Source: Fidelibacterota bacterium
Lineage (GTDB): Bacteria; Fidelibacterota; Marinisomatia; Marinisomatales; UBA1611
NCBI GenBank assembly: GCA_016784605.1
Contig: JADHUI010000004.1
Coordinates: 7,872-71,871 of the forward strand
Length of the DNA: 64,000 nucleotides
Direction of reading: 5' to 3'
In this document: positions 1 through 38,299 of the stretch, piece after piece
Layout: each line of letters begins with the position of its first letter
Position numbering within the stretch: the first letter of the stretch is position 1
The notes under the pieces: model-generated
What the model was told of the DNA's origin: nothing
What the model saw: only the letters and a program-made list of their open reading frames with translations
Database searches by the model: none
Program-made: the position numbers and the translations under genes

Positions 1-5
1 TTATA

Positions 6-614
6 ATGCCTAACGTGAGCCTTAAAAAAACACGAAATGTGTGGCGGGAATTTGATGTTTCATCTCGACATTCAATTATATATCCAACCCCTTTGCTGAA
101 CATGTTAGCGAGAGGAGGAACAGGAGGTATTATTTCTCCTGAGTTTACTTTCCCTGCTACAGCCATTATATATAATGAATTGTTACTCACTTGGGGGGAC
201 CAAAAACCATATAATATTACCTTTAAACTTGGCGTATCACTTGGATTAGCCGCAGAAAAACTTTCAAAAGGATCAACCATAGATTTGCCGTTAGCTTATC
301 CTCGATTTGCTCCATTATATAATGGATATGGACTTAGAACGGGTGTTGATTTTGCGGGGAAAGTCACAGAAAAGATTCGTTATTTATTAGATGTGGATAT
401 TCATATTCTTCCTGGAATGGAAGGGTCATTTGCTATAGAACATAAAGGAATGATGAGTTGGAATAAAAGCGATCGATTCCGGATATCTTTAGGGTATAAG
501 TTAGTCCATGGAGAATATCCATTTGGGAAAGATACACATATATTACCCTATCTTCCAATGGCCGAAACTTGGGTTCCGTTTATGGATTTCCAATGGGCGT
601 GGGCTCGAAGGTAG
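6..614 (+). CDS. Hypothetical protein, possibly the 3' part of a gene that starts left of the window
   Basis: ORF track. The frame is still open at the window edge (ATA at 3..5), so the ATG at 6 may be internal. No motif recognised. The stop lies 3 nt from the stop of the convergent gene at 618. Confidence 0.4.
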   Translation: MPNVSLKKTRNVWREFDVSSRHSIIYPTPLLNMLARGGTGGIISPEFTFPATAIIYNELLLTWGDQKPYNITFKLGVSLGLAAEKLSKGSTIDLPLAYPRFAPLYNGYGLRTGVDFAGKVTEKIRYLLDVDIHILPGMEGSFAIEHKGMMSWNKSDRFRISLGYKLVHGEYPFGKDTHILPYLPMAETWVPFMDFQWAWARR

Positions 615-617
615 CCT

Positions 618-1694
618 TTAAAAGTTTAACTTTAGCGTCAGCCTCGGAACCCAACCAAGTAACCCTAAATCTGAATAAGCATAATCTAGATTTAAGTGAT
701 AAGGTATAAATGGGAAATTCTTTGAGGATAATCCAAATCCCATAGAAAATCGATTAATATATTCCCCTTCTTCATAGTCTGATAATGCTTTATCTGATAC
801 ATCATCTAAATCATCTGGATATCTCAAAAAAGTATTTTTAACACCCGCTCTGAGATAGAGCAGTTTCATAACCTTTAATTCCGCTCCAGCCATATAAATA
901 GGATTAAAATCTCTTGGGTCGCTGTATTCTACATTAACGGTTAAACGCACCTTTTCTTGTTTTACAAGCGCATTCGGCCCAATGGGTGAAAAGGACAATC
1001 CAACCTTAAAAGTCATGGGAAGAGTCCATTGTTCTGTTGCGAGTCGAGCAATCACGTCAGGGTTTCCATTTAAATCTTCATAAGCGTCAATATCCACTTT
1101 TTGATCCGTTCCGGTCAGGCTCATTTTTGTACCAAAATTAGTAATGGCCATTCCAATTTTAAGCCCAGAAAATGACGTTGTATATTGAGATCCAACGTCA
1201 ATCGCTACTGCATTTGCACTAGAAAAGGATATCGTTTCCCGAACAATTTTAAATTGAATTCCGGTTGAAAATTTATCACTAATTCGCGTTCCATAAGCCA
1301 AACCTAAAGATAAATCGTTGGCGGTAAAGGTTCCTTCACCTTCGGGAGAAAACTCCGTCGTTCGAGTCATTTCACCATAGGACATTTGATTAATACTTAA
1401 GCCGAGGTATCCTTGTCGTCCAAATTGAACAGCCGTTGCGAGATAATTGTGGTTTATCCCAGCAATCCATTCTGTTTGGCTTATCATTATTTCTGATTTA
1501 CCAATACCGGTTATTCCAGCCGGATTCCAAAATAAAGCGGATACATCATTCACCTGCGCCGTAAATGCACCTCCCATTGCTGCCGCTTGACCGCCAACTT
1601 CTACTTTTAAGAAATTAGCTGCCGATGTGGATGCATTATCAAATTGTCCATTTAAAATTGCAATCGTTGTTAAGACAAATAATAATTTCTTCAT
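618..1694 (-). CDS. PorV/PorQ-family outer-membrane beta-barrel protein (T9SS-associated family), minus-arm copy
   Basis: Signal peptide MKKLLFVLTTIAILNG. N-terminal motif AANFLKVEVGGQAAAMGGAFTAQVNDVSALFWNPAG is typical of PorV-like barrels. C-terminal beta-signal LTLKLNF. Alignable with the 15501..16601 product (SQTEWIAGINHNY / SQSNWIAGIDMSY). 4-nt overlap with the upstream gene. Confidence 0.6.
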   Translation of the reverse strand: MKKLLFVLTTIAILNGQFDNASTSAANFLKVEVGGQAAAMGGAFTAQVNDVSALFWNPAGITGIGKSEIMISQTEWIAGINHNYLATAVQFGRQGYLGLSINQMSYGEMTRTTEFSPEGEGTFTANDLSLGLAYGTRISDKFSTGIQFKIVRETISFSSANAVAIDVGSQYTTSFSGLKIGMAITNFGTKMSLTGTDQKVDIDAYEDLNGNPDVIARLATEQWTLPMTFKVGLSFSPIGPNALVKQEKVRLTVNVEYSDPRDFNPIYMAGAELKVMKLLYLRAGVKNTFLRYPDDLDDVSDKALSDYEEGEYINRFSMGFGLSSKNFPFIPYHLNLDYAYSDLGLLGWVPRLTLKLNF

Positions 1695-4600
1695 TTGATC
1701 ACCGCAAACTTTCCAATATGTTCTTTACCATTTTCAAATCCCCCAGATACTACATGGAAGATATAAACACCAAAAGCAACATCTTGATTATTATATGTCC
1801 GTAAATCCCAGGCTTCAATACTCGCTCCCCGATATCCCGGACTCCCATTTTCATGGTTTAAGACTTGTACTAATTCGCCTGCTGAATTATAGATTCGAAT
1901 CATACACTCTTCAGGAAGGCGGGTAAATTGAATTTCCTTTTGATATTGTATATATTCATAAGCGGATGTGACAACATATGGATTTGGGACGACAAGAATT
2001 TCGCTCAAATCCAAATCGGATGAAGTACCATCTGCTGTTGTTTGAATTATGTATTGATCTTCTCCCGGAATAATAGGGTTTGGGAATACAATATCTAACA
2101 TATCCCCATAATTAAAGCGCAAATTGCTTGTATTAAAGTTGAGAACCCAACCCATCAAAACAGCATCATTTGCAAAATGATAGGGAATATTGGAGTCAAC
2201 ATATTCTTCATATATTGGTATCAATTGTAAATTTGTAGAAAGGGAGTAGAAGGAAACCCACGAAGAATCCAATGTTGTATCGGATTCGGTGAAAACAGAA
2301 TCTACTACAATGAGGTTATCCAATGCCCAGGCAGGAGAAGGTTTCGAATTTCCGGCAACTTGATATACTGCCATATTTAACCTTTTGCTATTTTCTGTAT
2401 CCCAAATTTCGATGGGTAGTTGAATCGTGTCGGGCTCAGCATTTCCCCGTAAAATATTCAAATTATAATAGGAAGAAATAGACCCAGATTCTGTAAATCG
2501 AATTTGCAAATCGAAACCTAATTCCTTATAGCCAACAATACCTGATGGCGCAGAAAATCCTGCTGAAGCAGGATAATTGCCATATAAATAATCAACAAAT
2601 CCACCCCAAGATGGGTTGTCAGGTCCAGATGCTCCACCACCTGTAAAAGCAAGGTTGGATGCAAGGGTATCGCCCACGGTTTGAATAACTGTGTCTGCCC
2701 CAGAAATGGTAAACGATGCATGACTAAAGACGGGGATAAAACCATCAATAACATATTTCATTTTTCCTGATTCTACATCGGAATCTTGATCTATAATAGT
2801 TTCTCCCGTTGTTGAGTTTGTTAATGTCCAATATGAAAAATACGTTGTATCCCAATTTGTCGTATCATCATCTGTGGAATCAATATTTACGCCATCATCA
2901 AAAAAGTCCACCAAATATGAATATCCTTTGCTCACAAAATCTGTTTCAGATACTTCATCATTTCCTAAGAATTCAAAAACAAATGCTTCTGCATCTATTG
3001 CACTCAAAGTTGCTTTGGCTAAACCGGTATGTGTAACATTTTTGTCCCCAATTTCATGACCTAACGATTTTCCCGCAGGAACAATTGAAATAGTGTTATC
3101 CCCATCAATAAACGCATTTTTAACTTTTGCATTTTCCATAGGGTCTACAACAGCTCCAGACCAATCATCGGGTCCATCATAAGCAGAAATAGTATACCAA
3201 TATTCATAACCATTTACTAAATCTTGATCAATAAACGAATATCGTAATCCATCGTCATTTCCGAGATTATAATAAATCAACGGATCAGACATTGCATAAG
3301 CTCCATTGAGTCCATCCATTTTATCAAAAATAGCCAGCGGTTTATAAAAATCAGTTGGGTTACCGTTAAAATCTGTAATAACGGATCCCCATGTATTTCC
3401 CCGATCAGAACTTCGATAAATGCGATACCCTTGGAATGCGTTATTTCCTGTTACGGGATCGATAGAATTTTCACTTCGATTATCCCAAAATAATGCTACT
3501 TTTCCATCTTGAGGGACAGCATGAACAACGGGAGGTTGTGGAGGTTGTGGGCTTGCGCAATTATTATTATATAATGATTGAAATACTTTCGCATTTCTTA
3601 ATAAATCCGCTTCATTTATTCCCATAAAATCAGCAAAAGTAAATATAACATATTCCCCTGGAGCCACAGCCATTTCTGGAATCGTATCACCCTCTGCGGA
3701 TATTTGTTCGGGTCCACCCGCCGCAATAATCCATGTAATGTCCGGACCATAAGAATAAGGTTTTTGGAATAAATCATTTGCCGGAGGTTCTACATTGTGA
3801 GGTTCTTGAATCCCGTGACTCATTTGAATATTATAAGCATCATTATCACTTTGGGAATCTTCACTGTATTCATATGTATAAAATGTTGAAATATCATATG
3901 GTTGAGTTGACCCATCCATATTGTATTTTGTACATTCAAGAAATTTAAGCCCAATCCAACCTAATCCAGATGACACAAACCCAGACGACTCATCGTCGGG
4001 GTCCCAAACAATGGCCAAATTTTCTAATAAATGTGCATCTGTAGTATCAGATAATTTTTCTGCAATGTGAGGATCATCTGCAGAAATAAGCATACATAAA
4101 TCATCGGTCCATTCTGCGCTTCCTTGTTCAGGCGCATCTGGATCTCCAGCAATTCCAAAGTATAAATCTCTTAAGGTGTCTTTACCCACATTTGTCATTT
4201 TTTGAATAAAAATAAGCCCATCATTCCCAAAGGTATTTGCATAATTTAACACCCAAGTATCGATGCGGACATTGAGAGGGCCAACGCCATTATTGCTGGC
4301 AAAAGTATTTCCTTGAAGCGGATCATTATCCGTAACAACAAAGTAAGCTTCTCTATCGGCCTGAACGCCCAAGCCACAAGGAGCATCCGGAAATCCTTCC
4401 GGTCCCAATACGGGCTCCACACCCGGGAAATAAAGCGTATCTTCAACATTCCCATTAGCATCGTATAAAACAGAAGCAAACGTTCCTGTTGGATCTGCTT
4501 CAATTGGCCACTCTGTAGGCCAAGATTGTTCTAAGTCGCTAAATGCAATTCCGATATTTTGATCTGTGTCGCTATATCCTGCATCATACCCCGGTAACGG

Positions 4601-4990
4601 TTCAAACTCTTCCTCAGAATCTCTCACAGAACCACGAACACCCACTGAGACAGAAGGGACACCGTTCTTTAATGCGCCCACCATTGGAGCTTGAGTCCAA
4701 TAATATGTACAGCACCCATTTGTAATCATACTTCCTGCGGGAAATTCATGATTTAATCCCCATCGATCGTAACCATATATTGCCGCATTTGACAATCGCA
4801 AAACCATATTACCTTTATCAAGAACACTTCGTTTTCTGTCATCATAAGCGGTAGGTTTAGCAAGAGGAGCTCGTCCTTTTGATGGCGCAATAATTTGATT
4901 ATAATATTCACGTTTAGAAAGCCCGGTTGATGGGTTTCCTGCATGGATTGTAATATTAAGTAATAAGGCAAGGATTAAATATTTTTTCAT
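1691..4990 (-). CDS. 1099-aa secreted protein of unknown function with FN3-like central domain and T9SS/FlgD-Ig-like C-terminal sorting domain
   Basis: Signal peptide MKKYLILALLLNITIHA. FN3-like block PPQPPVVHAVPQDGKVALFWDN...FQGYRIYRS...YEYWYTISAYD. C-terminal domain VVPNPY...IRIYNSAGELV...WDLRTYNNQDVAFGVYIFHV...GKFAVIK. Paralogue of 12195..15485. Confidence 0.7.
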   Translation of the reverse strand: MKKYLILALLLNITIHAGNPSTGLSKREYYNQIIAPSKGRAPLAKPTAYDDRKRSVLDKGNMVLRLSNAAIYGYDRWGLNHEFPAGSMITNGCCTYYWTQAPMVGALKNGVPSVSVGVRGSVRDSEEEFEPLPGYDAGYSDTDQNIGIAFSDLEQSWPTEWPIEADPTGTFASVLYDANGNVEDTLYFPGVEPVLGPEGFPDAPCGLGVQADREAYFVVTDNDPLQGNTFASNNGVGPLNVRIDTWVLNYANTFGNDGLIFIQKMTNVGKDTLRDLYFGIAGDPDAPEQGSAEWTDDLCMLISADDPHIAEKLSDTTDAHLLENLAIVWDPDDESSGFVSSGLGWIGLKFLECTKYNMDGSTQPYDISTFYTYEYSEDSQSDNDAYNIQMSHGIQEPHNVEPPANDLFQKPYSYGPDITWIIAAGGPEQISAEGDTIPEMAVAPGEYVIFTFADFMGINEADLLRNAKVFQSLYNNNCASPQPPQPPVVHAVPQDGKVALFWDNRSENSIDPVTGNNAFQGYRIYRSSDRGNTWGSVITDFNGNPTDFYKPLAIFDKMDGLNGAYAMSDPLIYYNLGNDDGLRYSFIDQDLVNGYEYWYTISAYDGPDDWSGAVVDPMENAKVKNAFIDGDNTISIVPAGKSLGHEIGDKNVTHTGLAKATLSAIDAEAFVFEFLGNDEVSETDFVSKGYSYLVDFFDDGVNIDSTDDDTTNWDTTYFSYWTLTNSTTGETIIDQDSDVESGKMKYVIDGFIPVFSHASFTISGADTVIQTVGDTLASNLAFTGGGASGPDNPSWGGFVDYLYGNYPASAGFSAPSGIVGYKELGFDLQIRFTESGSISSYYNLNILRGNAEPDTIQLPIEIWDTENSKRLNMAVYQVAGNSKPSPAWALDNLIVVDSVFTESDTTLDSSWVSFYSLSTNLQLIPIYEEYVDSNIPYHFANDAVLMGWVLNFNTSNLRFNYGDMLDIVFPNPIIPGEDQYIIQTTADGTSSDLDLSEILVVPNPYVVTSAYEYIQYQKEIQFTRLPEECMIRIYNSAGELVQVLNHENGSPGYRGASIEAWDLRTYNNQDVAFGVYIFHVVSGGFENGKEHIGKFAVIK

Positions 4991-4992
4991 CT

Positions 4993-7900
4993 TTACATTC
5001 CTACACTTAGGCCAATTTCAATATGACGAGGTGAACTGTAATAGTAAGGCCGCCAGAGATACATCGGCGAAACATTGGGGTTGAGATTAACATCCGGTTG
5101 TCCGGAGTTACCAAATACTCTTAATACGTTTTGGTAATTAAATAAATTTGTAATATCCATAAATATCCGAGTTTTTGTTCTTTTTACAGGTAAATCATAA
5201 AAAGCTTTCATGTTGAAATTTGCGGTAGGCGGCATCCTTCCTGAGTTAGGTTCGTCGATTGGACGACCACGTGAATCTGTAGGCGTATAAGGGAGGCCAC
5301 TTCCAACATTTCCTAAAATATTTATTCCAAATCCTTTTGGATGTTGATAATCAATACCCAGGTTTATAGTGTGGGTTTGGTCCCAATCCATCGTAAATGT
5401 ACGATTATAATCACGCCATCCATAGACTGATTCTAGATAAGCCACATCCCAATGGTAAGATGAATTGGGCGCATTTCCTTCTGCGCGAGCCATAGCATAA
5501 TTGAGGTACCAGCTATAATTATTTGAAAATAATTTTTCTAGAGAAATTTCAAAACCGCGTGAATTTGCATAATCCATATTTTCATACACAGCATACTGTT
5601 GTGGGTCTGCATCATAAATTCGTGAGGCAGCATAATCAAATAAATCTTTATAGTATAATGTGGTACTTATAACGTAATGTTTTCCAATCCAAGCTCTGAG
5701 GCCCATTTCATACTGAACAGAACGTTGGGGGCTCACGTTTGGACTTCCAACTTCCGGGATATACCAATCGGATAAATTATATGGAAACGGGAAAAGTGAA
5801 TTTCCGTATAAATTATTATTTTGAGCCATCGTGTTGGCGTTCCCGGACCAACCCGGCGCCATAATGCCGTTGCCTTCTTGATTTCCATAATTAAACATAT
5901 AATACAAATCAGGGAATTGGTAAAAGTGTCCATAGGAAAAATGAAAAGCTACTTTATCTGTTATTGGGTACCCAATACCAAGCCTTGGACTAAATTGACT
6001 TTTTATTTCAGCGTCAGGGGCAGGCGTTCCGCCAGTGATGGTTCCGCTATCATCGCGATTAAGATAACCCCATTCTAGATTATTTGCATTTTCATCTGTT
6101 AACGAACCCACATCGCTAGGTTCTATCCATACGGTTTCACTTCCGTCAGAATAATAATATCCTAATTCGCGGGTTGGATCAGGGTAGTTACTTTTTGGGT
6201 CCAGTTTATCCATTCTTAAACCAATATTTACAACAACATCATTATATTCAATTTTATCCTGGATGTACCAACTTTGAGATTCAGGTTGATGTTCATACAT
6301 TATAAAAGATGGATCGCCGGAATTACCAAAATATCCACCTCCAATTCCATAAGCAGCAAAGCGCGCCAAGTCATATTTTTTTTGCTCAAACCCAGCTTTT
6401 ATTTGGTGTTGTTTGTTCACTTGCCAAGTGAGGTCGCCTCCAACACTATTGTAATTGGACTTATACCATGTATAGTCATGCATTGTGGAAACGCCTTCTC
6501 TAATAGAATCGCCATAAATGTTATAAATATTATACCGTCCATAAAATTCATAATTGGAAGTATTATCATAAGCATCACCTTCCCTTAAGCGCGCATCAAC
6601 GCCCCAATCGTAATTCCCTGGATTTGTTGACGTAGCCCCCGATTGAATATCCCAATATTCATCCGACAGAATTGCTTCTCCGGAATCCCAGATATTATTA
6701 CCATTATCATCGGACCAGTTATAAACATTCCAAGTGCTATCATTATTCCAATCAGAGTAAGGTTCATTATTATCCCAAACGCCATTTCCGTTTTCATCAT
6801 TCCACCATTCTGTAGAATAAACACTCCAAACACCATCACCGTTCATATCTGCAAAAGGTTCGGCATAATACCCCAACCATAAATAATCTTCTCCCGCAGG
6901 AACTGTTTCTGGCGTATACCCATCCCATCCCTCGGGAATATTTATAATTTTACTTTCTAATTCGTGGTTTGGATTTAAGAGCGGTTCATACCCGTACCAA
7001 GATTCTGTTTTATGATCTTGGTAGCGAGCTGTGATATACATATTCTCTGAAACGGCATAGCTTGCTTTTATTTGTAAATCAGATGAAAGATCAAAATCAA
7101 TTCCACTTCTATCGGGTAGTTGGCGATAGCTCATGGAAAATGATTTAGATTCTTCGGAAAATTGATTATATCCTAAGGTGAGTTTTAATTTAGATACTGG
7201 ACGTAAAACAAGTTTTGCATTATATCGATCTCGCAAACGATACGCTCCTGTTTCCTCAATGTTTCCAGCAGATAACATGTCGGGCATGCCATCTAAATTA
7301 ATATCAGACATTGCCAACGTATCTACTTCGTTTACATCTTCGATCCCATCTTCATTTAAGTCAACCCAATTACCATCAATTCCATCATCATTTACATCTT
7401 TCCAAACATCGAAAGGAAGTTTGTTTTTCCACAAAGACGTTCTAGTGTTTAAACGATCTGCTGAAATAAAAAATGTAGCCAAATCAGGATTAAAGGGTAA
7501 TAATGGACCACTCAGAGATCCTTCAATTCGGGATTGATCCCAATCATTTATTTCTGTATTCAAAAAATTATCCGTTACACCGCGCACATTCCAAGAATAG
7601 TCTGAGCGTCCTTCTTTTGTCACAATATTTACAACCCCACTCATGGCCTCGCCATATTCAGCGTTGAAGGCGCCGGTAATAACGGAGAGTTCAGAAATAG
7701 CGCTTCGAGAAATATCCATCCCCATTTCTCCATAAAGTGCATCTTCCACAACAAAACCATCTACAAGAAAAGTGACCTCTCCTGTACGGCCACCCCTAAA
7801 ATGGATTCCACTTTCTGAATTTTCATTTTCAACAACCCCCGCCATGGTTGTCATGGCATCCTGAAAAGAATTGATAGGCATATTATTTAATTTTTCTTCT

Positions 7901-8286
7901 TCCATGGTTATGGTGGTGGCTGTTTGGTCGCGTACAATAATTGGGCGTTCAGCTTCAACCGTTATTTCATCGCCTTCGATAGCGGAGATTTCCATCGAAA
8001 AATTCAATTTAGTTGTATGATTTGCATTAATAATGACGTCTCGCACTACAACTGTTTTATATCCAATATAGGTTGCCGAAACGGTATATTTTGCGGCGGG
8101 AATATGAATGATAGAATAATCACCATCTTTGTTGGTTGCAGTTCCCATTGTTGTTGTTATTAAAACAACGTTTACCCCGATCAAGGATTTCCCGGAAGTA
8201 TTATCGGTGATTTTGCCCGTTATTTTTCCAGTATCCCCAGCAAACAGAAATGATAAAAAGGTGAAAAAGAAGATTCTTTTTTTCAT
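4993..8286 (-). CDS. TonB-dependent receptor, SusC-like architecture with N-terminal CarboxypepD_reg-like domain (about 1097 aa)
   Basis: The ATG at 8286 is preceded by GGAGG (8296..8300, minus strand) and gives signal peptide MKKRIFFFTFLSFLFA. The ORF-track start at 8358 adds 24 aa without a signal peptide. CarboxypepD_reg-like GKITGKITDNTSGKSLIGVNVVL...YTVSATYIGYKT. Plug motif IHFRGGRTGEVTFLVDGF. Long barrel. Confidence 0.85.
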   Translation of the reverse strand: MKKRIFFFTFLSFLFAGDTGKITGKITDNTSGKSLIGVNVVLITTTMGTATNKDGDYSIIHIPAAKYTVSATYIGYKTVVVRDVIINANHTTKLNFSMEISAIEGDEITVEAERPIIVRDQTATTITMEEEKLNNMPINSFQDAMTTMAGVVENENSESGIHFRGGRTGEVTFLVDGFVVEDALYGEMGMDISRSAISELSVITGAFNAEYGEAMSGVVNIVTKEGRSDYSWNVRGVTDNFLNTEINDWDQSRIEGSLSGPLLPFNPDLATFFISADRLNTRTSLWKNKLPFDVWKDVNDDGIDGNWVDLNEDGIEDVNEVDTLAMSDINLDGMPDMLSAGNIEETGAYRLRDRYNAKLVLRPVSKLKLTLGYNQFSEESKSFSMSYRQLPDRSGIDFDLSSDLQIKASYAVSENMYITARYQDHKTESWYGYEPLLNPNHELESKIINIPEGWDGYTPETVPAGEDYLWLGYYAEPFADMNGDGVWSVYSTEWWNDENGNGVWDNNEPYSDWNNDSTWNVYNWSDDNGNNIWDSGEAILSDEYWDIQSGATSTNPGNYDWGVDARLREGDAYDNTSNYEFYGRYNIYNIYGDSIREGVSTMHDYTWYKSNYNSVGGDLTWQVNKQHQIKAGFEQKKYDLARFAAYGIGGGYFGNSGDPSFIMYEHQPESQSWYIQDKIEYNDVVVNIGLRMDKLDPKSNYPDPTRELGYYYSDGSETVWIEPSDVGSLTDENANNLEWGYLNRDDSGTITGGTPAPDAEIKSQFSPRLGIGYPITDKVAFHFSYGHFYQFPDLYYMFNYGNQEGNGIMAPGWSGNANTMAQNNNLYGNSLFPFPYNLSDWYIPEVGSPNVSPQRSVQYEMGLRAWIGKHYVISTTLYYKDLFDYAASRIYDADPQQYAVYENMDYANSRGFEISLEKLFSNNYSWYLNYAMARAEGNAPNSSYHWDVAYLESVYGWRDYNRTFTMDWDQTHTINLGIDYQHPKGFGINILGNVGSGLPYTPTDSRGRPIDEPNSGRMPPTANFNMKAFYDLPVKRTKTRIFMDITNLFNYQNVLRVFGNSGQPDVNLNPNVSPMYLWRPYYYSSPRHIEIGLSVGM

Positions 8287-8517
8287 AAAGCGTTTCCTCC
8301 AGAATAACGCAGGTTGAAAATGAAGTGAAAGGTAGAACGTTAAGGCGGGATGCATCAAGCGAAATATCGCCTATTTCTTAAAAGGCATTTTTATCTTGTT
8401 TTTTCTTGAATCAAATAAAAAAATGTTTCATATTCCGTTCCGCTCTAGGGTTAGTTAAACCCCCAAAAGCCGAGGTTTTTATTATTTTACACATTACTAG
8501 TTAGTCAGGAGTTACTT

Positions 8518-11500: not shown

Positions 11501-12162
11501 TAAGTCTATCCTTAAAAACGCGACGGATTAGCAACTTAATGCTTGATGCGAATTACACGCTACAGTATGCAGGTGGTACGGGGTCAAGTGCGGGGGGCAA
11601 CTACCGTATTGCTTGGCAGGGTGGAAACAATTTAACCTATGTTTCGCCTCTTGATTTTGATCAACGCCACACAGGGAATCTAGCTTTAGATTATCGAACA
11701 GGCGTTCGTTCTAGGGTTCCGTTATTCGGTGTAAATATGTTAATGAGATTTGGAAGTGGTCTTCCATACACACCTGTACAAGTAGATACAGAAGTATTGA
11801 CGGGTGGTATTTCTTACCGACCCACAGCGGCATTTAATTCTGCCAATATGCCTTGGTCTATGAATGTAGATTTAAAAGTGGATAAAGGTTTGAGTTTTGG
11901 TAAGTATAATATGAAATTCTTTGTCTGGGTGAAAAATCTCTTAGACATCAGAAATGTGAGCACAATCTATCCAGCGACTGGCCAAGCCGATAATGATGGC
12001 TGGTTAGGCACAGATGAAGGTGTAAACTGGATGACAAATGCTGCTTTTAATGGAAACGCAACACAAGAACAAGCGGCTAACCTTTATAATTCCAAACTGT
12101 CAGATCCTTATAATTGGGAAGAGCCAAGACAAGTTCGAATTGGTTTCCGGATTGATTTATAA
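8518..12162 (+). CDS. TonB-dependent receptor, SusC-like architecture with N-terminal CarboxypepD_reg-like domain (1214 aa)
   Basis: AGGAG at 8507..8511, 6 nt before the ATG. Signal VVLFLLLTNHLFA. CarboxypepD_reg-like GKVVGTVVDKENGSPLPGVNVML...YSVKFSYIGYRS. Plug motif LHIRGGRTDEVGFYVDGV. Paralogue of 4993..8286. Confidence 0.85.
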   Translation: MDTFKRVFYVRVVLFLLLTNHLFAGDVGKVVGTVVDKENGSPLPGVNVMLVGTSYGAATTETGSFVILNVAPGLYSVKFSYIGYRSVTIEQVRVTSDLTTNLFETKLASEALDGEEVVVIAEKSLIEINATNEVRVVRSEDIQNMNVRGYADVVALQTGVVVDASGDLHIRGGRTDEVGFYVDGVYVNNAFTSGRAGDVPNLSLEEVSFQSGGFGAEYGSANSGIVKTTTKTGGTDLNITVEGIKDFGSPDASVDKPFAYSYGYQLGSFALGGPVPGLNWLRYFLSVEQSSLADASPTNATVPYYTGDLDAAGRPNVGDNYIDANGNTIWDDFIDKDANGVYDEGVDTPAEVYTDLNGNGEYDAPDYKDISADDVEYRWGPKPNNWIEKSSVAGNILIDFQPKFKLPWKLKIGGSSFNSERSNYSHTRSLFDVYSPKSTSNQVGTGDWINRFNKSDNGFQSFYGNLSGAIPAFKNMFFNVQYSHSQDSYKYYDPVFDQSYGQFTYEDGTLSGLEVPFINSGKMYDYTSDPVYQYVVTDSLDNILGVYDYDYWNFDTVDIASQAWAQDTSVYWAWDSTAFWRYNEMRYDDMNYINPLYNGNAKMPTPDLELANYTKAGYTSADGSNYTKRNTSRDAFTGSLTWQYNNHELKAGFEITNSMIRYYRLSRSRSITSYFSVNPPYSGDQDIWKYDWVATDTDSNGIVLDSALSVTMGQDGVLDYTQDDTDSWKDDDYDGDGDSDYDDYFGNYKHQAYASAYAENIGYNITGEEEVNSGQDDARRPNSRAFYLRDKIELNDLVLNLGLRYDYFDPANKIFNPETGGANNIVIDDNNQIAETVYAKDADENGILDPAEYIYWDPTSEDASGRPHRIDAEPRSLISPRVGMAFPISDKTVFHAQYGKYFQQPENNRLFVSYIRFVQNLSQGNFTISANPDLQPQENTQYEIGFKQMVSADVSIDATVFYKQMTGYPQIRNIAARPVGYALYVNGDYGTVKGLSLSLKTRRISNLMLDANYTLQYAGGTGSSAGGNYRIAWQGGNNLTYVSPLDFDQRHTGNLALDYRTGVRSRVPLFGVNMLMRFGSGLPYTPVQVDTEVLTGGISYRPTAAFNSANMPWSMNVDLKVDKGLSFGKYNMKFFVWVKNLLDIRNVSTIYPATGQADNDGWLGTDEGVNWMTNAAFNGNATQEQAANLYNSKLSDPYNWEEPRQVRIGFRIDL

Positions 12163-12194
12163 TGATGAGACAGGGAAATAGGAGATATAATACA

Positions 12195-15100
12195 ATGCAA
12201 ATTAAAAAAATAGTACTTCTGTTAGCTGCCAGCGCCATGCTGATGGCAGCAGAACCAACAAATAGAGTAGGGGATCCAGCTCATGCTGAAGGGCTGTTAA
12301 AGTCTATGTTCCCTAACTCGGGTGTAATTGAACACGTTTTATGGGATGGAAATAATATTTCCACCGTTCACGGGAACCATGGCGATGTATCTAGTTATCA
12401 CGTAACAGGAAGCTCGGGAACGGAGTGGCCAAAAGGAAGTGGCAAATTTGCCATTTTCCAATCAGGGCTTTGGATGCTTAGCGCAAAATCAAGACCTAAC
12501 GATCCAACCGTTTCTGACGAGGATGATACAACGCCCTATGTAGATGATGTGCGTTCAGCGGCAGCAGAATATTCTGTTGAATATGTTCCGGGAAATATGT
12601 CGGGAACAAATGATGGTCATATTTATCAAATACATCGTGCCGAGTTAGACGCTTTCCTTGAAAATGATTATGCCACATATAGTGCAATGAGTTCATCGTT
12701 ACCCATTACTAAAATTGATGGCGCGAATATTTTCACAGAATTAATAACAAAATCATTCCCTACCGGTGATTTTGAAAATTGGCCCGCACAAGATGGAGCT
12801 CCATGGATAGATGTAAACGGAGATGGTGTTTATAATATTCAAGATGGTGATTATCCTGATATTTTAGGCGATATGTTTCATTGGTATGTTATGAATGATG
12901 CCGATGCGGCAACACACCAAAATTTATGGGGAACAGCTCCCATGGGAATGGAAGTTCAAACATCTGTTTTCGGGTTTAATCAAGCAGGTGCCCTAGGGAA
13001 TATTATGTTTGTTCGCTGGGTGGCTATTAATAAAGGGACAGATGATTTAGACAGTGTTTACGTATCCATGTGGCACGATGATGATGTTGGTGATGCAAGT
13101 GATGATTTAGTCGGTTGTGATACATTATTAAGCGTTGGTTACACATATAATGCTGGCACAGATATGTTATATGGTGCTGGTGTTCCAGCGGCGGGTGCAG
13201 ATTTCTTTCAAGGACCGCTTGTGGACTCTGAAGGCGATACGGCAACTATATTAACATGGTCTTCTGATTCTAGCTATTATGTTAAATCTATAGCTGGGAA
13301 AAAACGACTCGGCTTAACGTCTTTTGCCAAATATTCTAATGGGAATCCAATTGCAGGTGATCCTGAAACAGCCGAAGAAGCTTTAAACTATGCCAATGGA
13401 AGAATTGGAGAAAGTGGAGATCTGCAAATTGATCCAGGTACGGGTGAACCAACGATGTTTGTCCATGCTGGTGATCCTGTTACAGGCGCTGGCGATTTGG
13501 ATCATACCGAAGGTGATCGTCGTTATATGATGACTTCAGGTCCATTTACTTTTAATGTGGGCGATACAGCAGAAGTTGTTGGTTCTATCATTATTGCTGC
13601 GAGTGGTGATTGGCAAAAATCTATTACAAAAATGAAATACTATGATAATTTTGCTCAAGGTGCTTTTGATGCAAACTTTAATGTATGTTCACCTCCAGCT
13701 CCAGAAGTGGAAGTGTCTCAAATGGATCGAAAAGTGGTTCTATCCTTTGAGGGTATTGCTGAAAAAGTTGAAGAGTATGCCTGTGCTGGTTATGCCTTTC
13801 AAGGCTATAATATTTACCAGGGTGAATCAGCCGTTGGTCCTTGGAAAAGAGTTACAACATACGATTTAGTTGATGAAATTAAACTAATTATTGATCAAGG
13901 TTTAGACGACGCAACTGGAGAATTGTTAGAATTCCCATCCCAGTTTGGAACAGACACGGGTATTGATCATTATATCGAAATTGATCAAGATTATGTAAAT
14001 GGTGGTTTACTCATCAATTATCGTGAATATTATTTCGCTGTTACAGCTTATGCCTTTGACCCAGATGCGGCGAAACGTGTTATTGAAAGTCCTATATATG
14101 CTTATACAGCTATTCCAAATCCTCCAGGCGTTGGAACAGAATTAGCTATCGGTAATAATGAAAATGTGGATTATTCACATACCGCAGGAACAGCAGGTAC
14201 ATCCATTTATCCAAATGTGGTTGACCCATATTTATTAACAGGCGAATTATACAGTGTTACGGTTGAAGAAGCAGACAGTACTCGATCTAAATGGGTATTA
14301 TCCAGTGGCGCTGAAGTGGTTGCTGAAGATACACTTTTCCCAATTACACAAGATTATTTTGCTACTTTAAAAGAGGCAAATGGCGGAATTGATCCAGATG
14401 GTGTTTATATTAATAATACCATTACGGATGGATTTATTTTAACATTTCAAGACGGACTCTGGGATGTGAATGATTATTCTAGCGCAACAGAAACAGTGGC
14501 AGATACAGCTAATTCTGAGCTTGCTTTTTCAGGGTTAGGGTCTGGTGGATTTAGCGCCTGGGCAGATTATATGAATTTCTTATTTGATACATACGGATCT
14601 AATGCTGGTTTCTCACCTGCGAATGGTGTCCCATCTGTTGATGACAAACAAAGAGATATTGAGCTTAGGTTCACGGACAATGGTTCTATTGCTTCTTACG
14701 CTAACATTCAATCTTTACGAGGAAATGTGGACCCAGATACAATTATGATTCCATTTGAGTTGTGGGATATTGAAAACGGTGAAGAGAGACAAATTAATGT
14801 CCTAACATATCAGGTTGCTGGTGCTACGAAGCCAGAAAGTTTTATTGAACCAGTCTTATACAATGAAGACTCAACTGTCAGTCATTGGGCTTTTGCAGCC
14901 AACTTCCAATATATTCCTGTTTATACGAATTATGAAGCAAGCTCTGTTTCACCAATTCACCCACAAGACGATGCAGATCAAACAGGTTGGGTTTTGAATT
15001 TCAACAGAAATAATACAGTATGGCAAAGCGGTGATCAAATCGAAATCGTATTTGATAATCCATTGGTCCAAGGAGTGGATGAATATCAATTTACTCCTAT

Positions 15101-15485
15101 TGGAACAAAGGCAAGTGTAGATGCTTCAGTTGACATTGAAAAAATCAATGTATTCCCCAATCCATATTTTGGTCAAAACCCGGAAGAAAGCAACCCTCAG
15201 GGCAGAATGGTTTATTTTACGCATTTAGGTGTAGGAACATCTACAATTCGGATTTACACTATTTCCGGAGATTTGGTGACCCGTTTTGATCATGATGTGG
15301 TTAGTGAAAATGCTGCTGGTGGTAATCGAGCTGTTTGGGATTTGAGAAATAGTAACGGAATTCCGGTTGCAAGTGGTGTATATATTGTTTATATCACTGT
15401 AACAGATGAGAATGGTACTGCCATTGGAGATAAAATTTTGAAACTCGCAATATTCCAGCCTGAAGAGCGGCTGGACTTATTTTAA
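12195..15485 (+). CDS. About 1096-aa secreted protein of unknown function with FN3-like central domain and T9SS/FlgD-Ig-like C-terminal sorting domain
   Basis: The ATG at 12195 follows AGGAG (12179..12183) and gives signal MQIKKIVLLLAASAMLMAA. The ORF-track start at 12162 overlaps the TBDR stop. FN3-like PPAPEVEVSQMDRKVVLSF...FQGYNIYQG...YYFAVTAYAFD. CTD VFPNPY...IRIYTISGDLV...WDLRNSNGIPVASGVYIVYI. Conserved block LRFTDNGSIASYANIQSLRGNVDPDTIMIPFELWD matches IRFTESGSISSYYNLNILRGNAEPDTIQLPIEIWD in 1691..4990. Confidence 0.7.
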   Translation: MQIKKIVLLLAASAMLMAAEPTNRVGDPAHAEGLLKSMFPNSGVIEHVLWDGNNISTVHGNHGDVSSYHVTGSSGTEWPKGSGKFAIFQSGLWMLSAKSRPNDPTVSDEDDTTPYVDDVRSAAAEYSVEYVPGNMSGTNDGHIYQIHRAELDAFLENDYATYSAMSSSLPITKIDGANIFTELITKSFPTGDFENWPAQDGAPWIDVNGDGVYNIQDGDYPDILGDMFHWYVMNDADAATHQNLWGTAPMGMEVQTSVFGFNQAGALGNIMFVRWVAINKGTDDLDSVYVSMWHDDDVGDASDDLVGCDTLLSVGYTYNAGTDMLYGAGVPAAGADFFQGPLVDSEGDTATILTWSSDSSYYVKSIAGKKRLGLTSFAKYSNGNPIAGDPETAEEALNYANGRIGESGDLQIDPGTGEPTMFVHAGDPVTGAGDLDHTEGDRRYMMTSGPFTFNVGDTAEVVGSIIIAASGDWQKSITKMKYYDNFAQGAFDANFNVCSPPAPEVEVSQMDRKVVLSFEGIAEKVEEYACAGYAFQGYNIYQGESAVGPWKRVTTYDLVDEIKLIIDQGLDDATGELLEFPSQFGTDTGIDHYIEIDQDYVNGGLLINYREYYFAVTAYAFDPDAAKRVIESPIYAYTAIPNPPGVGTELAIGNNENVDYSHTAGTAGTSIYPNVVDPYLLTGELYSVTVEEADSTRSKWVLSSGAEVVAEDTLFPITQDYFATLKEANGGIDPDGVYINNTITDGFILTFQDGLWDVNDYSSATETVADTANSELAFSGLGSGGFSAWADYMNFLFDTYGSNAGFSPANGVPSVDDKQRDIELRFTDNGSIASYANIQSLRGNVDPDTIMIPFELWDIENGEERQINVLTYQVAGATKPESFIEPVLYNEDSTVSHWAFAANFQYIPVYTNYEASSVSPIHPQDDADQTGWVLNFNRNNTVWQSGDQIEIVFDNPLVQGVDEYQFTPIGTKASVDASVDIEKINVFPNPYFGQNPEESNPQGRMVYFTHLGVGTSTIRIYTISGDLVTRFDHDVVSENAAGGNRAVWDLRNSNGIPVASGVYIVYITVTDENGTAIGDKILKLAIFQPEERLDLF

Positions 15486-15500
15486 GCATTGGAGGATAGA

Positions 15501-16601
15501 ATGTATAAATCTATTTATTACAAATGTGTGTCTATTGGGCTTTTGCTCGGAATCTTTTTTCTGAGCACAGCAGTAGAAGCGGGGAGTAAAGCTCGCCGCG
15601 GAACAGCAGGAGCGCAGGAATTATTAATGCCACTTGGGTCGAAGGGTACAGCTATGTCTGGCGCTTATGTTGCCGGTATTACCGGTGTTGAAGCTGCCCA
15701 CTGGAATATTGCTGGATTGGGTGGTATGGAAGGAAATGGGGAAGCCATGTTTTCTCAGAGTAATTGGATTGCTGGAATTGATATGTCTTACGGTATTGTT
15801 GCCACTTCTGTGGGCGCCAATATGTTTGGTGTATCTTTAAAGTCATTCAACTTTGGGGATATTCCCGTTACAACAAGTTCTCAACCAGACGGAACAGGTG
15901 AAATGTATTCACCTCGATTCTTTACATTGGGTGCTATGTATGCACGTCGTGTGACGGATCGGATTCGATTTGGAACAGAATTCAAAATTGTGAATGAATC
16001 TATCATGCGCGAAACGGCAACAGGATTTGCAGTGGATGCGGGCGTTCAATACAATATTAACAATATTCAACTTGGGGCATCCATTCGTAACCTTGGGACA
16101 AACATGAAATTTAGCGGTTCTGACCTAGATGAATTTCATCAACCAGATGGAACAGACCCAGGCACACCGAATGAACCTCGACAAATTGGAACGTCTCAAT
16201 TTGAAATGCCAACAACATTTGAAATGGGCGTTGCATACAATAAATCCTTTTCAGGAAATGATGTCATTTTAGCAGCATCCTTTTTAAACAACAATTTTTC
16301 TTTTGATGAATATCGTTTCGGCGCAGAAGTTAAAACCATGGGAATGCTTTATCTCCGCGGTGGAATGGCTTTTGCGCAAGATCCAGAACCATTTGGAGAC
16401 GACGGTATTGAAGGAACAACAGACGATAGTGATGATGTTGTTTGGGAGCAAAAAACAGAAGATTTTATATGGGGTCCGTCATTTGGATTTGGACTGGACT
16501 TTTCTAAACTATTAGGTGTAGGTTTATCCGTGGACTATGCTTACAGATCTGCTGAGTTTTTCAGTGGAGTAAGCTGGTTATCTTTAAACTTCGCCTTTTA
16601 A
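15501..16601 (+). CDS. PorV/PorQ-family outer-membrane beta-barrel protein, plus-arm copy
   Basis: The ATG at 15501 is preceded by GGAGG (15491..15495). The ORF-track start at 15489 is TTG. Signal SIGLLLGIFFLSTAVEA. Motif GTAGAQELLMPLGSKGTAMSGAYVAGITGVEAAHWNIAGLG. C-terminal LSLNFAF. Paralogue of 618..1694. Confidence 0.6.
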   Translation: MYKSIYYKCVSIGLLLGIFFLSTAVEAGSKARRGTAGAQELLMPLGSKGTAMSGAYVAGITGVEAAHWNIAGLGGMEGNGEAMFSQSNWIAGIDMSYGIVATSVGANMFGVSLKSFNFGDIPVTTSSQPDGTGEMYSPRFFTLGAMYARRVTDRIRFGTEFKIVNESIMRETATGFAVDAGVQYNINNIQLGASIRNLGTNMKFSGSDLDEFHQPDGTDPGTPNEPRQIGTSQFEMPTTFEMGVAYNKSFSGNDVILAASFLNNNFSFDEYRFGAEVKTMGMLYLRGGMAFAQDPEPFGDDGIEGTTDDSDDVVWEQKTEDFIWGPSFGFGLDFSKLLGVGLSVDYAYRSAEFFSGVSWLSLNFAF

Positions 16602-16695
16602 ACGAAGGTAGAAGGCACAATAGATGGAACAAAATACAGGTAGTATTCCCATTTATTGTTGCTTGCAAGCAAGAAAAACAAACAAAGGAGTTAAA

Positions 16696-19044
16696 ATGAG
16701 TAAGAATGTGATAAAGTTCTTAAGCGTAATGCTCGTCCTAACATGGACTCTTTCTGCAGAAGGAGCAAAATCTGGTTCGGTTGACCGCGCTGGAAGCCAT
16801 TTAGGATTACATTATTCAGAGAACGGCTCAACAGGTGAAGCAGATGCTTTAACGGGACCGATTGTACTTCCTCGTAAGGAATACACTCAGCGTTTTAACC
16901 GTGGTACAGCTGATACAATGTCTTATGATAGCCAAGTTGGTTGGGGTGGACAATTTATTCAAGCCCCAGGCGATGCTATGTTAATGATGTATCAATTACC
17001 AGCAGATGCAACCCTTAAGGGCGTAAATATTCCCATTTATGAATGGGGTACTGGCGATCAGGAATTCACCGTGTCTGTCCATAAACTTTCTTATCCAGTA
17101 ACCGCTGATGGCGAAACTGCTTATAGCAGTGATGCTGTTGATGGTGACGGTTGGATTGGTGGATATGATATGGCTGATGATGGTTCTGTTTCTATTGAAG
17201 GTACAGAATACACAGCTGGCGGAACAGTAAGTATTTGTCAAGATGGTGCTAACGCTGTTGCAGAAGGCGCAACAGATCCATTGGGCAGCGAGGCAGGTTT
17301 TGGACCTCCCGGAGTTCCAGTTATGGGTCTTGTGTGGCCAGACGGTGTTACAGCTGTAACAATGACACCCGCTACACACGGCGACTATGCTGTGGATGGA
17401 ATTTCTGACCATTGGATTAACTTTGCTGATTTTGGTTCTGAACCAGAATTATTGCAAGGTGAATGGGTTGGAATTATGGTTGCTTACACCGGTGAAGGTG
17501 GTGGCGACGATGAAGCAACTGGTTTCTTCTATGCAGAAGGTAATGGCGTTGTTTCTCCATGGGCTTTCATGAAGTTTTATGCAGGTTGTAGTGGTACTTC
17601 TGGTAACGGTGGTTGGCATATTCGCCATTGGCTCATTCGCTATAATTTAGCGGTTGAACTAACAGGCGATCGTGCACCAGCTATTAGTGGCGCAACACCT
17701 CTTTATACAACAATGTCTAATGATGCTCGTCCGGTATCAGCTACAATCACAGATGATAATCCATCAGGTGGTGCTGCTGGTGTTGAAAGTGCAACATTGC
17801 ATGTATATCCAATGCCATCTCATGCATATCAAACATTTGATATGACTGCTGACGGTGATACCTATTCTGGTGAAATTCCTGGAATGGAAGCTGGAACAGA
17901 AATCTATTGGTGGATTACTGCAACAGACGTTGAGGGGAATGAAACTGAAACAACCCAATGGTATTACAGTATTTTCCAAGCAACACAACCAACACTATTT
18001 TTCTATAATAGTGGTGAATATGGTTCCTGGATTGCTGGATACTACATGTATGGTTTAACACACCCATTCGATTTCTGGGATGGCGCTAATTATGGTGCAG
18101 CTACTAGCGACCTATTAGCAGCCTACGAAAGTGTAATCGAAATGACAGGCGGTGGCCCTGCTGTGATAAACAGTGAAGCTGTTGCTCCATGGTTTGCAGA
18201 AGGTGGAAAAGATTATATCCTCGCAGGCGATGAATGGTTAGGTGCTCAATCAGGTTGGGAAAACCTTGACTACGTTGAAGGTGATTTCCAATATGATGTT
18301 CTTGGTATTGATGCTGACTATAATGATATTAATTATGGTGCAAGCGGAGACCAAAATGGCGTGTCTCGTTTAGAAGCTATTTCGGGTGATGCTATTTCTG
18401 GTGCACTTCATGAGTTCATGGCAGATTCATTAGTATTGAACTATGATCCTAATTATGAATTAGGCATTTCAAACTGGTTAGACGGTGTAGATGTTGTTGA
18501 TGGTTTCAGCAACTCTTTCAACGCTTATAGCACAGTTCTTGATTCTAATGGTGTTCTTTCAGATGATGCTGAATTGATGGCTACCGGACCTTATAAAGCA
18601 CACGATAATGGAAGTAATTCTGTTTTCTTTGGCTTTGATCCATTATGTTTAAATACAACACCATATCATTGGATTGGTATTTATGGAACTGGTGCGCTAC
18701 AATCCGCTGTAGTATGGGCTGATGTATTTGCATCCGTTGGCGATGAAGATACAAACCCATTAGCTCAATCTTTTGAGTTACTCGGTAACTATCCAAATCC
18801 ATTTAACCCAACAACGAACATTGCATTCAACTTGAATGTACGTTCTGATGTGACTGTAAGAATCTTCTCCGTATTAGGTGAAGAAATTGCAACAATCCAA
18901 AGTGGCAATCTCGCTTCAGGAACCAATATGGTTTCTTGGAACGGAACAAACAACTTTGGTCAATCCGTTGCTTCTGGTCTCTACATTTATCAAGTAGAAG
19001 CGGGTCAACAGTCCTTAACAGGGAAAATGATGCTCTTGAAATAA
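16696..19044 (+). CDS. About 782-aa secreted protein of unknown function with T9SS type-A-like C-terminal sorting domain
   Basis: The ATG at 16696 follows AAGGAG (16685..16690) and gives signal MSKNVIKFLSVMLVLTWTLSA. Ig-like block SATITDDNPSGGAAGVESATLHVY...YSGEIPGMEAGTEIYWWITATDVEGN. C-terminal NYPNPFNPTTNIAFNL...VRIFSVLGEEI...GLYIYQVEAG...GKMMLLK (about 18772..19041). Confidence 0.7.
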   Translation: MSKNVIKFLSVMLVLTWTLSAEGAKSGSVDRAGSHLGLHYSENGSTGEADALTGPIVLPRKEYTQRFNRGTADTMSYDSQVGWGGQFIQAPGDAMLMMYQLPADATLKGVNIPIYEWGTGDQEFTVSVHKLSYPVTADGETAYSSDAVDGDGWIGGYDMADDGSVSIEGTEYTAGGTVSICQDGANAVAEGATDPLGSEAGFGPPGVPVMGLVWPDGVTAVTMTPATHGDYAVDGISDHWINFADFGSEPELLQGEWVGIMVAYTGEGGGDDEATGFFYAEGNGVVSPWAFMKFYAGCSGTSGNGGWHIRHWLIRYNLAVELTGDRAPAISGATPLYTTMSNDARPVSATITDDNPSGGAAGVESATLHVYPMPSHAYQTFDMTADGDTYSGEIPGMEAGTEIYWWITATDVEGNETETTQWYYSIFQATQPTLFFYNSGEYGSWIAGYYMYGLTHPFDFWDGANYGAATSDLLAAYESVIEMTGGGPAVINSEAVAPWFAEGGKDYILAGDEWLGAQSGWENLDYVEGDFQYDVLGIDADYNDINYGASGDQNGVSRLEAISGDAISGALHEFMADSLVLNYDPNYELGISNWLDGVDVVDGFSNSFNAYSTVLDSNGVLSDDAELMATGPYKAHDNGSNSVFFGFDPLCLNTTPYHWIGIYGTGALQSAVVWADVFASVGDEDTNPLAQSFELLGNYPNPFNPTTNIAFNLNVRSDVTVRIFSVLGEEIATIQSGNLASGTNMVSWNGTNNFGQSVASGLYIYQVEAGQQSLTGKMMLLK

Positions 19045-19070
19045 GATCATTCATTTGATGAACCTAAAAA

Positions 19071-19100
19071 GGGGCAAGGAAACTTGCCCCTTTTTATTTT
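19071..19100 (+). terminator. Rho-independent terminator closing the plus-arm operon
   Basis: Perfect 8-bp stem GGGGCAAG (19071..19078) / CTTGCCCC (19083..19090) with GAAA loop, followed by TTTTTATTTT. It lies 27 nt after the stop at 19044. Confidence 0.85.
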
Positions 19101-19147
19101 AACCCTTTTCTCATTTTTCACACTAGTGTTTTCCTTTAATTTCCGCG

Positions 19148-38291: not shown

Positions 38292-38299
38292 ACAGTCAC

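Follow-up and report, generated by a model that had tools for sequence, protein, structure and literature searches.

What would a bacterium do with two mirror-image gene clusters, each encoding a large TonB-dependent receptor (TBDR), a giant surface protein of about 1,100 residues and an outer-membrane barrel? We asked this of a 64,000-nucleotide stretch of contig JADHUI010000004.1 from a Fidelibacterota bacterium (assembly GCA_016784605.1), hereafter the window, in which the two clusters, or arms, diverge from a single intergenic region. As the same gene order is common to many related phyla and a full-text literature search returned no description of the three-gene module, we regard the triad as probably an unstudied nutrient-capture machine. 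Our best reading, to which we assign a probability of about one half, is that the module captures and takes up a substrate independently of SusD, with a surface protein held by a barrel of its own.

Gene order and its conservation

An open reading frame (ORF) map of the window returned seven ORFs across the two arms, at the coordinates that an initial annotation from the sequence alone had given them. We refer to the minus-arm proteins and their relatives as m-type and to the plus-arm proteins and their relatives as p-type, and the features are as follows (aa, amino acids; CTD, C-terminal domain; T9SS, type IX secretion system).

618 to 1694, minus strand: m-type PorV/PorQ-family outer-membrane barrel, 358 aa, Sec signal peptide without a lipobox
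1691 to 4990, minus strand: m-type giant surface protein, 1099 aa; signal peptide, N-terminal supersandwich, FN3-like domain, variable beta-sandwich region, CTD
3527 to 4909, minus strand: N-terminal domain of the m-type giant (residues 28-488), predicted beta-supersandwich, galactose-mutarotase-like
2021 to 3070, minus strand: hypervariable middle of the m-type giant (residues 641-990), defined by column conservation
1694 to 2005, minus strand: CTD of the m-type giant (residues 996-1099), divergent T9SS type A CTD
4993 to 8286, minus strand: m-type TBDR, 1097 aa; carboxypeptidase-regulatory-like N-terminal domain, TonB-box-like motif, plug, barrel with loop inserts rich in D, N, G and W
7942 to 7971, minus strand: TonB-box-like motif DEITVEAERP of the m-type TBDR, between N-terminal domain and plug
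8287 to 8517, no strand: divergent intergenic region, 231 bp, presumed to hold both promoters
8518 to 12162, plus strand: p-type TBDR, 1214 aa; TonB-box-like EEVVVIAEK at 8860-8886
12195 to 15485, plus strand: p-type giant surface protein, 1096 aa; CTD and a conserved extra tail, FQPEERLDLF
15501 to 16601, plus strand: p-type PorV/PorQ-family barrel, 366 aa from ATG, 370 aa from a TTG at 15489
16696 to 19044, plus strand: p-type cluster gene 4, 782 aa from ATG; signal peptide, type A CTD above threshold, N-terminal part unassigned
19069 to 19100, plus strand: intrinsic-terminator-like hairpin (GGGGCAAG/CTTGCCCC) with a T-run that closes the plus arm, by direct reading of the sequence

Evaluating one genome per species, we found 79 loci encoding relatives of the giant protein, spanning Marinimicrobia, KSB1, Kryptonia, Ignavibacteria, Calditrichota, Rhodothermales and metagenome-assembled genomes (MAGs) labelled Bacteroidota. 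The complete same-strand order of TBDR, giant and PorV-like barrel was present in 71 of them and the other 8 were cut by contig ends, with no counter-example, such that the order proposed for the window recurs in every related locus with enough flank. One carrier, Roseithermus sacchariphilus of the Rhodothermales, is cultured and has a complete genome (gene AWN76_004570 and its neighbours); the paper on its xylan transcriptome, the only such paper for a cultured carrier, says nothing in its text about the module genes.

The giants belong to a large family. A profile search of 1.84 billion cluster representatives (50% identity) at E ≤ 1e-30 returned relatives in at least 5,315 clusters; the best 150 of these were nearly all full length (about 940-1325 residues), with a few shorter fragments. 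All named homologues carry the label "hypothetical protein" or "T9SS type A sorting domain-containing protein". One homologue (P0396), 45% identical to the Roseithermus protein, was deposited as 'Candidatus Odinarchaeota archaeon' on a 5.6-kb contig, which is most likely a mis-binned bacterial contig.

The two arms match each other position by position, as the initial annotation had proposed. Identity was 29-35% for the TBDRs (BLASTP E 2e-44 and 1e-40), 31% for the giants over 658 aligned columns covering their C-terminal ~630 residues (E 1e-61) and 30% for the barrels (E 2e-45), similarity far above chance by which we judge all three pairs to be paralogues. The N-terminal halves of the giants are about 20% identical in a 67-sequence alignment, with motifs in common, and can be aligned as profiles; both peptide pairs quoted in the annotation were found in the proteins.

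Loci reached through the plus-arm giant (L080-L083, from Marinimicrobia and KSB1) likewise run TBDR, giant, barrel, and p-type giants always occur with p-type TBDRs and p-type barrels, KSB1 included. Since the TBDRs and barrels of L080-L083 score best against the plus-arm proteins, the m- and p-type modules diverged as whole units, and since KSB1 also has both types, each with its own TBDR and barrel, the duplication is ancient rather than recent. The mirror-image pair is real in the window, but its layout is specific to close relatives (L001, L002, L029, L084), modules elsewhere standing alone, and does not reflect a recent duplication. Single MAGs hold two or more diverged modules on different contigs (SAT138, with L006 and L025; the bacterium GXO92 of the Fibrobacteres-Chlorobi-Bacteroidetes [FCB] superphylum, with P0088 and P0127), from which we count at least two to three modules per genome. 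On another Marinimicrobia contig (L082, 14850-19423), two tandem giant paralogues follow a p-type module and its CTD protein, scoring 435 and 181 bits against the plus-arm giant, and no receptor gene separates them from the module.

Within the arms, genes are spaced from -4 to +94 nt, the start of the m-type barrel gene overlapping the stop of the m-type giant by 4 nt, and these distances, the length of the intergenic region and the terminator of the plus arm, a clear hairpin with a T-run, all agreed with the initial annotation. Its p-type barrel gene is present too, but its size and start do not go together, 370 aa requiring the TTG at 15489 and the start at 15501 giving 366 aa. The m-type TBDR starts at an ATG (MKKRIFF) in an ORF extendable to a TTG at 8358, and a separate gene prediction for a contig 99% identical to this one likewise gave 1097 aa. 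A sigma-70 promoter scan did not rise usefully above shuffled background, an alignment of the intergenic region revealed conservation among close relatives only and no clear operator, and an Rfam scan of positions 1-20000 found no element there, nor any riboswitch or leader naming a substrate in the scanned interval.

The proteins and their surroundings

Both receptors are TBDRs by profile, with a plug (PF07715, 38.9 bits for the m-type and 37.7 for the p-type against a cut-off of 23.9) and a barrel (PF00593, 90.7 and 84.8 bits, cut-off 27). Both also have a carboxypeptidase-regulatory-like N-terminal domain, and above their Pfam cut-offs we found PF13715 in the m-type TBDR, and PF13620, PF13715 and PF25183 in the p-type TBDR. 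PF25183 (OMP_b-brl_4, cut-off 30), which we take to be the Oar-type barrel family, scored 65.3 bits in the p-type TBDR and was not reported for the m-type TBDR at E ≤ 0.01. The SusC/RagA model TIGR04056 was not reached by either, the m-type TBDR scoring 64.6 bits against a cut-off of 368 over profile positions 2-209 only and the p-type TBDR having no match. Between N-terminal domain and plug, 28 receptors from all six phyla sampled conserve a motif, (E/G)EEVxVxAERPxI, which we liken to the canonical TonB box.

Each TBDR also carries 5-6 DxDxDG-type motifs (EF-hand or thrombospondin-3-like; for example DMNGDGVW, DENGNGVWD and DLNGNGEYD) in its D/N/G/W-rich insertions, at window positions 6750-7400 in the m-type TBDR (residues ~297-336 and 480-560) and at ~9520-9610, 10600-10730 and 11040 in the p-type TBDR. 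To judge from these motifs, the insertions are presumably Ca2+-binding extracellular loops.

For the giants, Pfam and NCBIfam yielded no family match apart from the CTD. Both have a Sec signal peptide, MKKYLILALLLNITIHAG and MQIKKIVLLLAASAMLMAA, neither with a lipobox cysteine; not being lipoproteins, they need another anchor. All-beta, without a lipobox and without a family match beyond the CTD, the protein downstream of the receptor is neither a SusD nor a recognisable hydrolase, and the absence of both, and of a regulator, noted initially holds.

A full-length AlphaFold2 model of the m-type giant (pLDDT 70.5) was all-beta and multidomain. Foldseek searches with the whole protein returned mainly FN3 arrays at TM-scores of ~0.08, an uninformative result, and we modelled the N-terminal domain separately instead. 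With a deeper alignment this domain gave a beta-supersandwich (pLDDT 84.8, pTM 0.88) whose Foldseek matches included non-catalytic supersandwich domains of GH94, GH116, GH65 and GH149, aldose epimerases and the YidC P1 domain. In fold only, the model thus resembles a kind of domain seen among carbohydrate-associated accessory domains. Within the m-type subfamily, column conservation was 0.66-0.67 for the N-terminal domain, the FN3-like domain and the CTD and 0.34-0.37 for residues 641-990, and a hypervariable middle between such conserved flanks suggests substrate specificity or diversifying selection.

The CTD of the giants appears to be a real, if divergent, type A T9SS CTD, PorU/PorZ-like in character. 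Its profile had exactly two PDB matches, one to the CTD of PorU at E 6e-4 and one to that of PorZ at E 0.09, and Foldseek matched the modelled m-type CTD to PorZ (5m11) with probability 1.0. Among 22 family members, the PorZ C-terminus was matched in 12, TIGR04183 in 8 (E ≤ 0.01) and the PorU C-terminus in 6, and 14 of 19 isolated CTDs matched PF18962 (at E ≤ 0.1 and below the Pfam cut-off of 27 bits; best 1.2e-4). The PorZ model (NF052228, cut-off 260) and the PorU model (NF033707, cut-off 420) reached 29.9 (for the p-type giant) and 21.4 bits, confined to the last ~70 residues; neither a PorU peptidase (C25-like) domain nor a PorZ propeller was matched in the giants by Pfam, NCBIfam, PDB or Foldseek searches. 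The CTDs of PorU and PorZ stay uncleaved and hold these proteins on PorV and PorQ, and cognate PorV-like barrels have been suggested to shield a CTD from cleavage (PMC10202324). The giants' CTD is conserved like the core of the protein (0.67, against 0.34 in the middle), which we would not expect of a disposable export signal.

The p-type giants differ at their very end, where an extra tail, (F/M)xPEERLD(L/V)(F/Y), follows the last CTD strand and closes on an aromatic residue (window 15456-15485, last 9 codons and stop), whereas m-type giants stop right at the CTD (…GKFAVIK). The tail could be a barrel-specific docking element or resemble a beta-signal. A terminator-like hairpin in the same codons (15454-15475) was considered as an attenuator; its z-scores are weak, and because the fold is not kept in L080, L082 and L083 we rejected it and assign the conservation to the protein level, that is, to the PEERLD tail.

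Downstream, both barrels exceeded the cut-off of the PorV/PorQ family model (NF033709, 90 bits), the m-type at 178 bits (residues 23-358 against profile positions 1-326) and the p-type at 123.8 bits (residues 40-370 against 2-326). The equivalog cut-offs for PorV (NF033710, 250), PorQ (NF033711, 220) and PorV2 (NF052325, 325) were reached by neither, with scores of 66.6, 112 and 80.1 bits for the m-type barrel and 38.5, 52.5 and 68.8 bits for the p-type, and by these profile scores the two barrels are a separate branch of the family. The FadL/Toluene_X model (PF03349, cut-off 29.7) gave 22.2 bits for the m-type barrel and no match for the p-type, and the barrels are PorV-like, as proposed at the outset, and not FadL; the sole PDB sequence match of the m-type barrel was PorV of Flavobacterium johnsoniae (6h3i_F, E 2e-4).

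Clustering the genes that flank the 79 loci revealed no fourth component conserved across phyla. Gene 4 of the plus arm, a 782-aa protein above threshold for both type A CTD models (TIGR04183, 35.8 bits against 23; PF18962, 29.6 against 27), has a homologue after the barrel in the p-type Marinimicrobia loci L080-L082 and is thus a conserved gene 4 within Marinimicrobia. Several other candidates were rejected as synteny at the level of single lineages: a 1540-aa AMP-binding/GNAT gene downstream in 17 loci; HD-GYP, CitMHS and MatE genes upstream; and M14, S8, CotH and amidohydrolase genes. A peptidyl-prolyl isomerase gene (19148-20422) was rejected as well, following the p-type cluster in L080 and L081 and not in L082 or L083. 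Among the neighbours in related loci, S8 and CotH proteins carry CTDs.

Elsewhere the window holds housekeeping genes (mgtE, proS, recO, uvrA, ruvB, queA, ispDF, prs, a pyrophosphatase, priA and others). Three other observations concern the surroundings. To the left of the window, beside the minus-arm module (L084, 14377-20768), genes for an AsnC-type regulator, an ammonium transporter (amt), P-II and glutamine synthetase (glnA) form what looks like a nitrogen-assimilation cluster. At 37494-39025, a gene for a MotA/ExbB-family proton channel precedes one with MotB_plug and OmpA domains, a stator-like pair that may be flagellar, Tol-like or other. At 25112-25909 lies a CPBP-family intramembrane protease resembling the glutamic proteases of C-terminal sorting (MrtJ/MrtS-type), at 64 bits against a cut-off of 75.

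A proposed capture and uptake module and its rivals

To summarize this biology, we interpret each arm as one outer-membrane module in which a substrate would be caught at the cell surface and imported with TonB energy, the receptor serving as the gated import channel. The giant would be exported through Sec and then the T9SS, and its CTD, probably uncleaved, would stay on the PorV/PorQ-family barrel encoded directly downstream, as PorZ does on PorQ and PorU on PorV. A non-lipoprotein, beta-rich binding protein of ~1100 residues would in this way be kept on the surface beside its receptor, as a functional substitute for SusD or the surface-glycan-binding lipoproteins of Bacteroidota Sus-like systems. 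The conserved N-terminal supersandwich, FN3-like domain and CTD of the giant may form the interfaces with barrel and receptor, the hypervariable middle may face the environment or the substrate, and the two arms would be ancient paralogous modules, presumably for different substrates. In favour of this reading are the receptor architecture with its TonB-box-like motif, the PorV/PorQ-family barrels, giants that are not lipoproteins, a CTD that resembles the retained ones and is conserved like the core, an N-terminal fold of binding type, the invariant synteny with overlapping or nearly abutting genes, the divergence of the modules as units and the presence of several modules in one genome. Capture and uptake, the surface location of the giant, the retention of its CTD on the barrel and its contact with the receptor are what we infer from these features. 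We also put forward, tentatively, a bolder form, in which a PorQ-like barrel permanently tethers a giant lid or capture protein, through an uncleaved T9SS CTD, onto a TonB-dependent transporter in one stable complex that is old in the FCB superphylum and a major polymer-uptake route in the abundant deep-ocean Marinimicrobia.

Several observations weigh against the capture and uptake module. The CTDs of the window's own giants fall below the TIGR04183 cut-off of 23 bits (19.6 for the p-type, no match for the m-type), such that the initial view of the giants as T9SS cargo finds support at the level of the family, through a divergent type A CTD, but not by the scores of these two proteins. Neither the window nor the 8 kb to its left yielded any of the T9SS core genes (gldK/L/M/N, sprA/sov, porU, porV), and no related locus examined had an SprA-sized ORF. 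Across the 79 loci, the module has no constant neighbour that is a regulator, an inner-membrane transporter or a degradative enzyme, and hence nothing points to a substrate. As the resemblance of the N-terminal domain is at fold level only (TMq 0.3-0.38, 8-12% identity), it settles neither carbohydrate binding nor a lack of catalysis, and the domain has acidic residues invariant in both subfamilies (E128, D283, D296, D297, D333) that, from their conservation, could be a catalytic or a Ca2+ site. The physical association of the three proteins is likewise something we infer. Finally, Rhodothermales and Ignavibacteria presumably also have SusD-type systems, which means that the module is not simply a stand-in where SusD is missing.

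The invariant acidic residues are also the first argument for the strongest rival, in which the giant belongs to an enzyme family not yet described (a glycoside hydrolase, lyase or peptidase) and cleaves a polymer where the receptor opens, the receptor then importing what is released. Foldseek matches to whole enzymes, including a GH174 endo-1,3-fucanase (TMq 0.34, TMt 0.31) and polysaccharide lyases, and CTD-bearing S8 or M14 peptidases near some loci fit this idea. We consider it unlikely, given that neither sequence profiles (Pfam, NCBIfam, PDB) nor Foldseek assigned the giants to a catalytic family or fold, that the TM-scores are below 0.4 with most matches being non-catalytic accessory domains, and that the neighbouring peptidases vary between phyla rather than being conserved.

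Clearly less probable is a second rival, in which giant and barrel have nothing to do with import but make up a surface coat, adhesin or protective canopy, the receptor being co-encoded only because it lies beneath or inside it. The FN3- and Ig-like beta-sandwich domains of which the giant consists are typical of adhesins and surface-layer proteins, a hypervariable middle is what pressure from phages or grazers would be expected to leave, and BamG-BamH, in the Bacteroidota complex for beta-barrel assembly (BAM), offers the precedent of a FadL-like barrel gripping a surface protein by its loops (PMC12578637). A coat, however, would not need a cognate receptor that diverges alongside it in all 71 loci and both subfamilies, and substrate specialisation accounts better than one coat for the several diverged modules of a genome.

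The TBDR-like protein might instead export or assemble the giant, in an Oar-like manner, with the PorV-like barrel as shuttle or anchor in a self-contained secretion module. Oar reportedly acts in PopC secretion in Myxococcus; the p-type TBDR matches PF25183 at 65 bits against 30, if that family is what we take it to be, and the lack of T9SS core genes in the window and the 8 kb to its left would suit such a module. We hold this to be very improbable, since the type A CTD of the giant is a T9SS signal, a folded protein of 1100 residues is too large for a plugged barrel of 22 strands, the conserved TonB-box-like motif agrees with import, and other above-threshold T9SS cargo in the window and related loci implies a working T9SS. 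That giant and barrel serve the T9SS attachment complex as housekeeping parts specific to a lineage, functionally analogous to PorU-PorV or PorZ-PorQ, as the size and CTD of the giant and the PorQ model as best equivalog of the m-type barrel (112 bits) could suggest, we find barely credible, as the PorU and PorZ matches are to the CTD alone (21-30 bits against 420 and 260) with no C25-like peptidase domain or beta-propeller, and neither the multiplicity of diverged copies within a genome, with variants in the thousands, nor the obligatory TBDR partner would be explained.

Known systems and significance

We compared the module with known systems that share parts of it. As in SusC/SusD-type systems (Sus-like, RagAB), a TBDR of ~1000-1200 residues with a carboxypeptidase-regulatory-like N-terminal extension is followed directly by a surface-exposed partner, here predicted, in one operon, and there are many diverged paralogues per genome. 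The module differs in having no SusD/RagB-type TPR lipoprotein, in a receptor that fails the SusC/RagA model, in an all-beta, non-lipoprotein partner of T9SS-cargo type with its own barrel, and in the lack of a linked sigma/anti-sigma pair, hybrid two-component regulator or carbohydrate-active enzyme.

The PorZ-PorQ and PorU-PorV pairs of Porphyromonas gingivalis likewise join a large CTD-bearing surface protein to a PorV/PorQ-family barrel, and their two CTDs, retained and anchoring (PMC10202324), are the only ones in the PDB that the giants' CTD profile finds. Outside the CTD, however, the giants resemble neither the PorU peptidase nor the PorZ propellers, and the barrels of the module lie under the PorV and PorQ equivalog cut-offs, are always joined to a TBDR and occur in multiple diverged copies. 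In the SprB-SprF system of Flavobacterium johnsoniae (type B CTD cargo, PorP/SprF-like barrels), the cargo gene also adjoins its own dedicated barrel gene, and the SprF-type barrel is thought to handle and anchor its cargo specifically (PMC10202324). The CTD of the module is instead type A-like, its barrel belongs to the PorV/PorQ family (PorP_SprF, 17.4 bits in the plus-arm barrel, cut-off 22.3), a TBDR is absent from SprB systems and the giant is not a gliding adhesin.

BamG-BamH, compared by description only, is a putative operon pair in which a FadL/PorV-like barrel binds a surface protein through extracellular loops (PMC12578637). BamH differs from the giants in being a surface lipoprotein without a CTD, and the unit is attached to BamA rather than to a TBDR. 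Oar-type proteins have the same domain order as the receptors (CarboxypepD_reg, Plug, OMP_b-brl_4), with the plus-arm TBDR above the PF25183 cut-off and the minus-arm TBDR lacking a match at E ≤ 0.01. We know of no description of Oar proteins with a downstream giant CTD protein and a PorV-like barrel.

The kinds of part (TBDR, type A-like T9SS cargo, PorV/PorQ-family barrel) and the principle of a cargo plus its cognate barrel are therefore already known, while what is new is their invariant combination with a TBDR, the large unannotated family of giants, and the spread over FCB phyla other than Bacteroidota. If the bolder form is true, the module would be a third way, dependent on the T9SS and independent of lipoproteins, to equip a TonB-dependent transporter with a surface partner. 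For T9SS biology, it would extend to a large class of cargo outside Bacteroidota the retention of a CTD protein by a cognate PorV-like barrel, an idea so far based on PorU-PorV, PorZ-PorQ and SprB-SprF, and it bears on the origin of Sus-like uptake systems. With Roseithermus sacchariphilus as a cultured carrier, the module is testable. The Marinimicrobia (Fidelibacterota, SAR406) rank with the most abundant of dark-ocean heterotrophs and are almost uncultured, and their uptake of organic matter has largely been guessed from counts of TonB receptors, for which the module offers a concrete and very widespread candidate machine.

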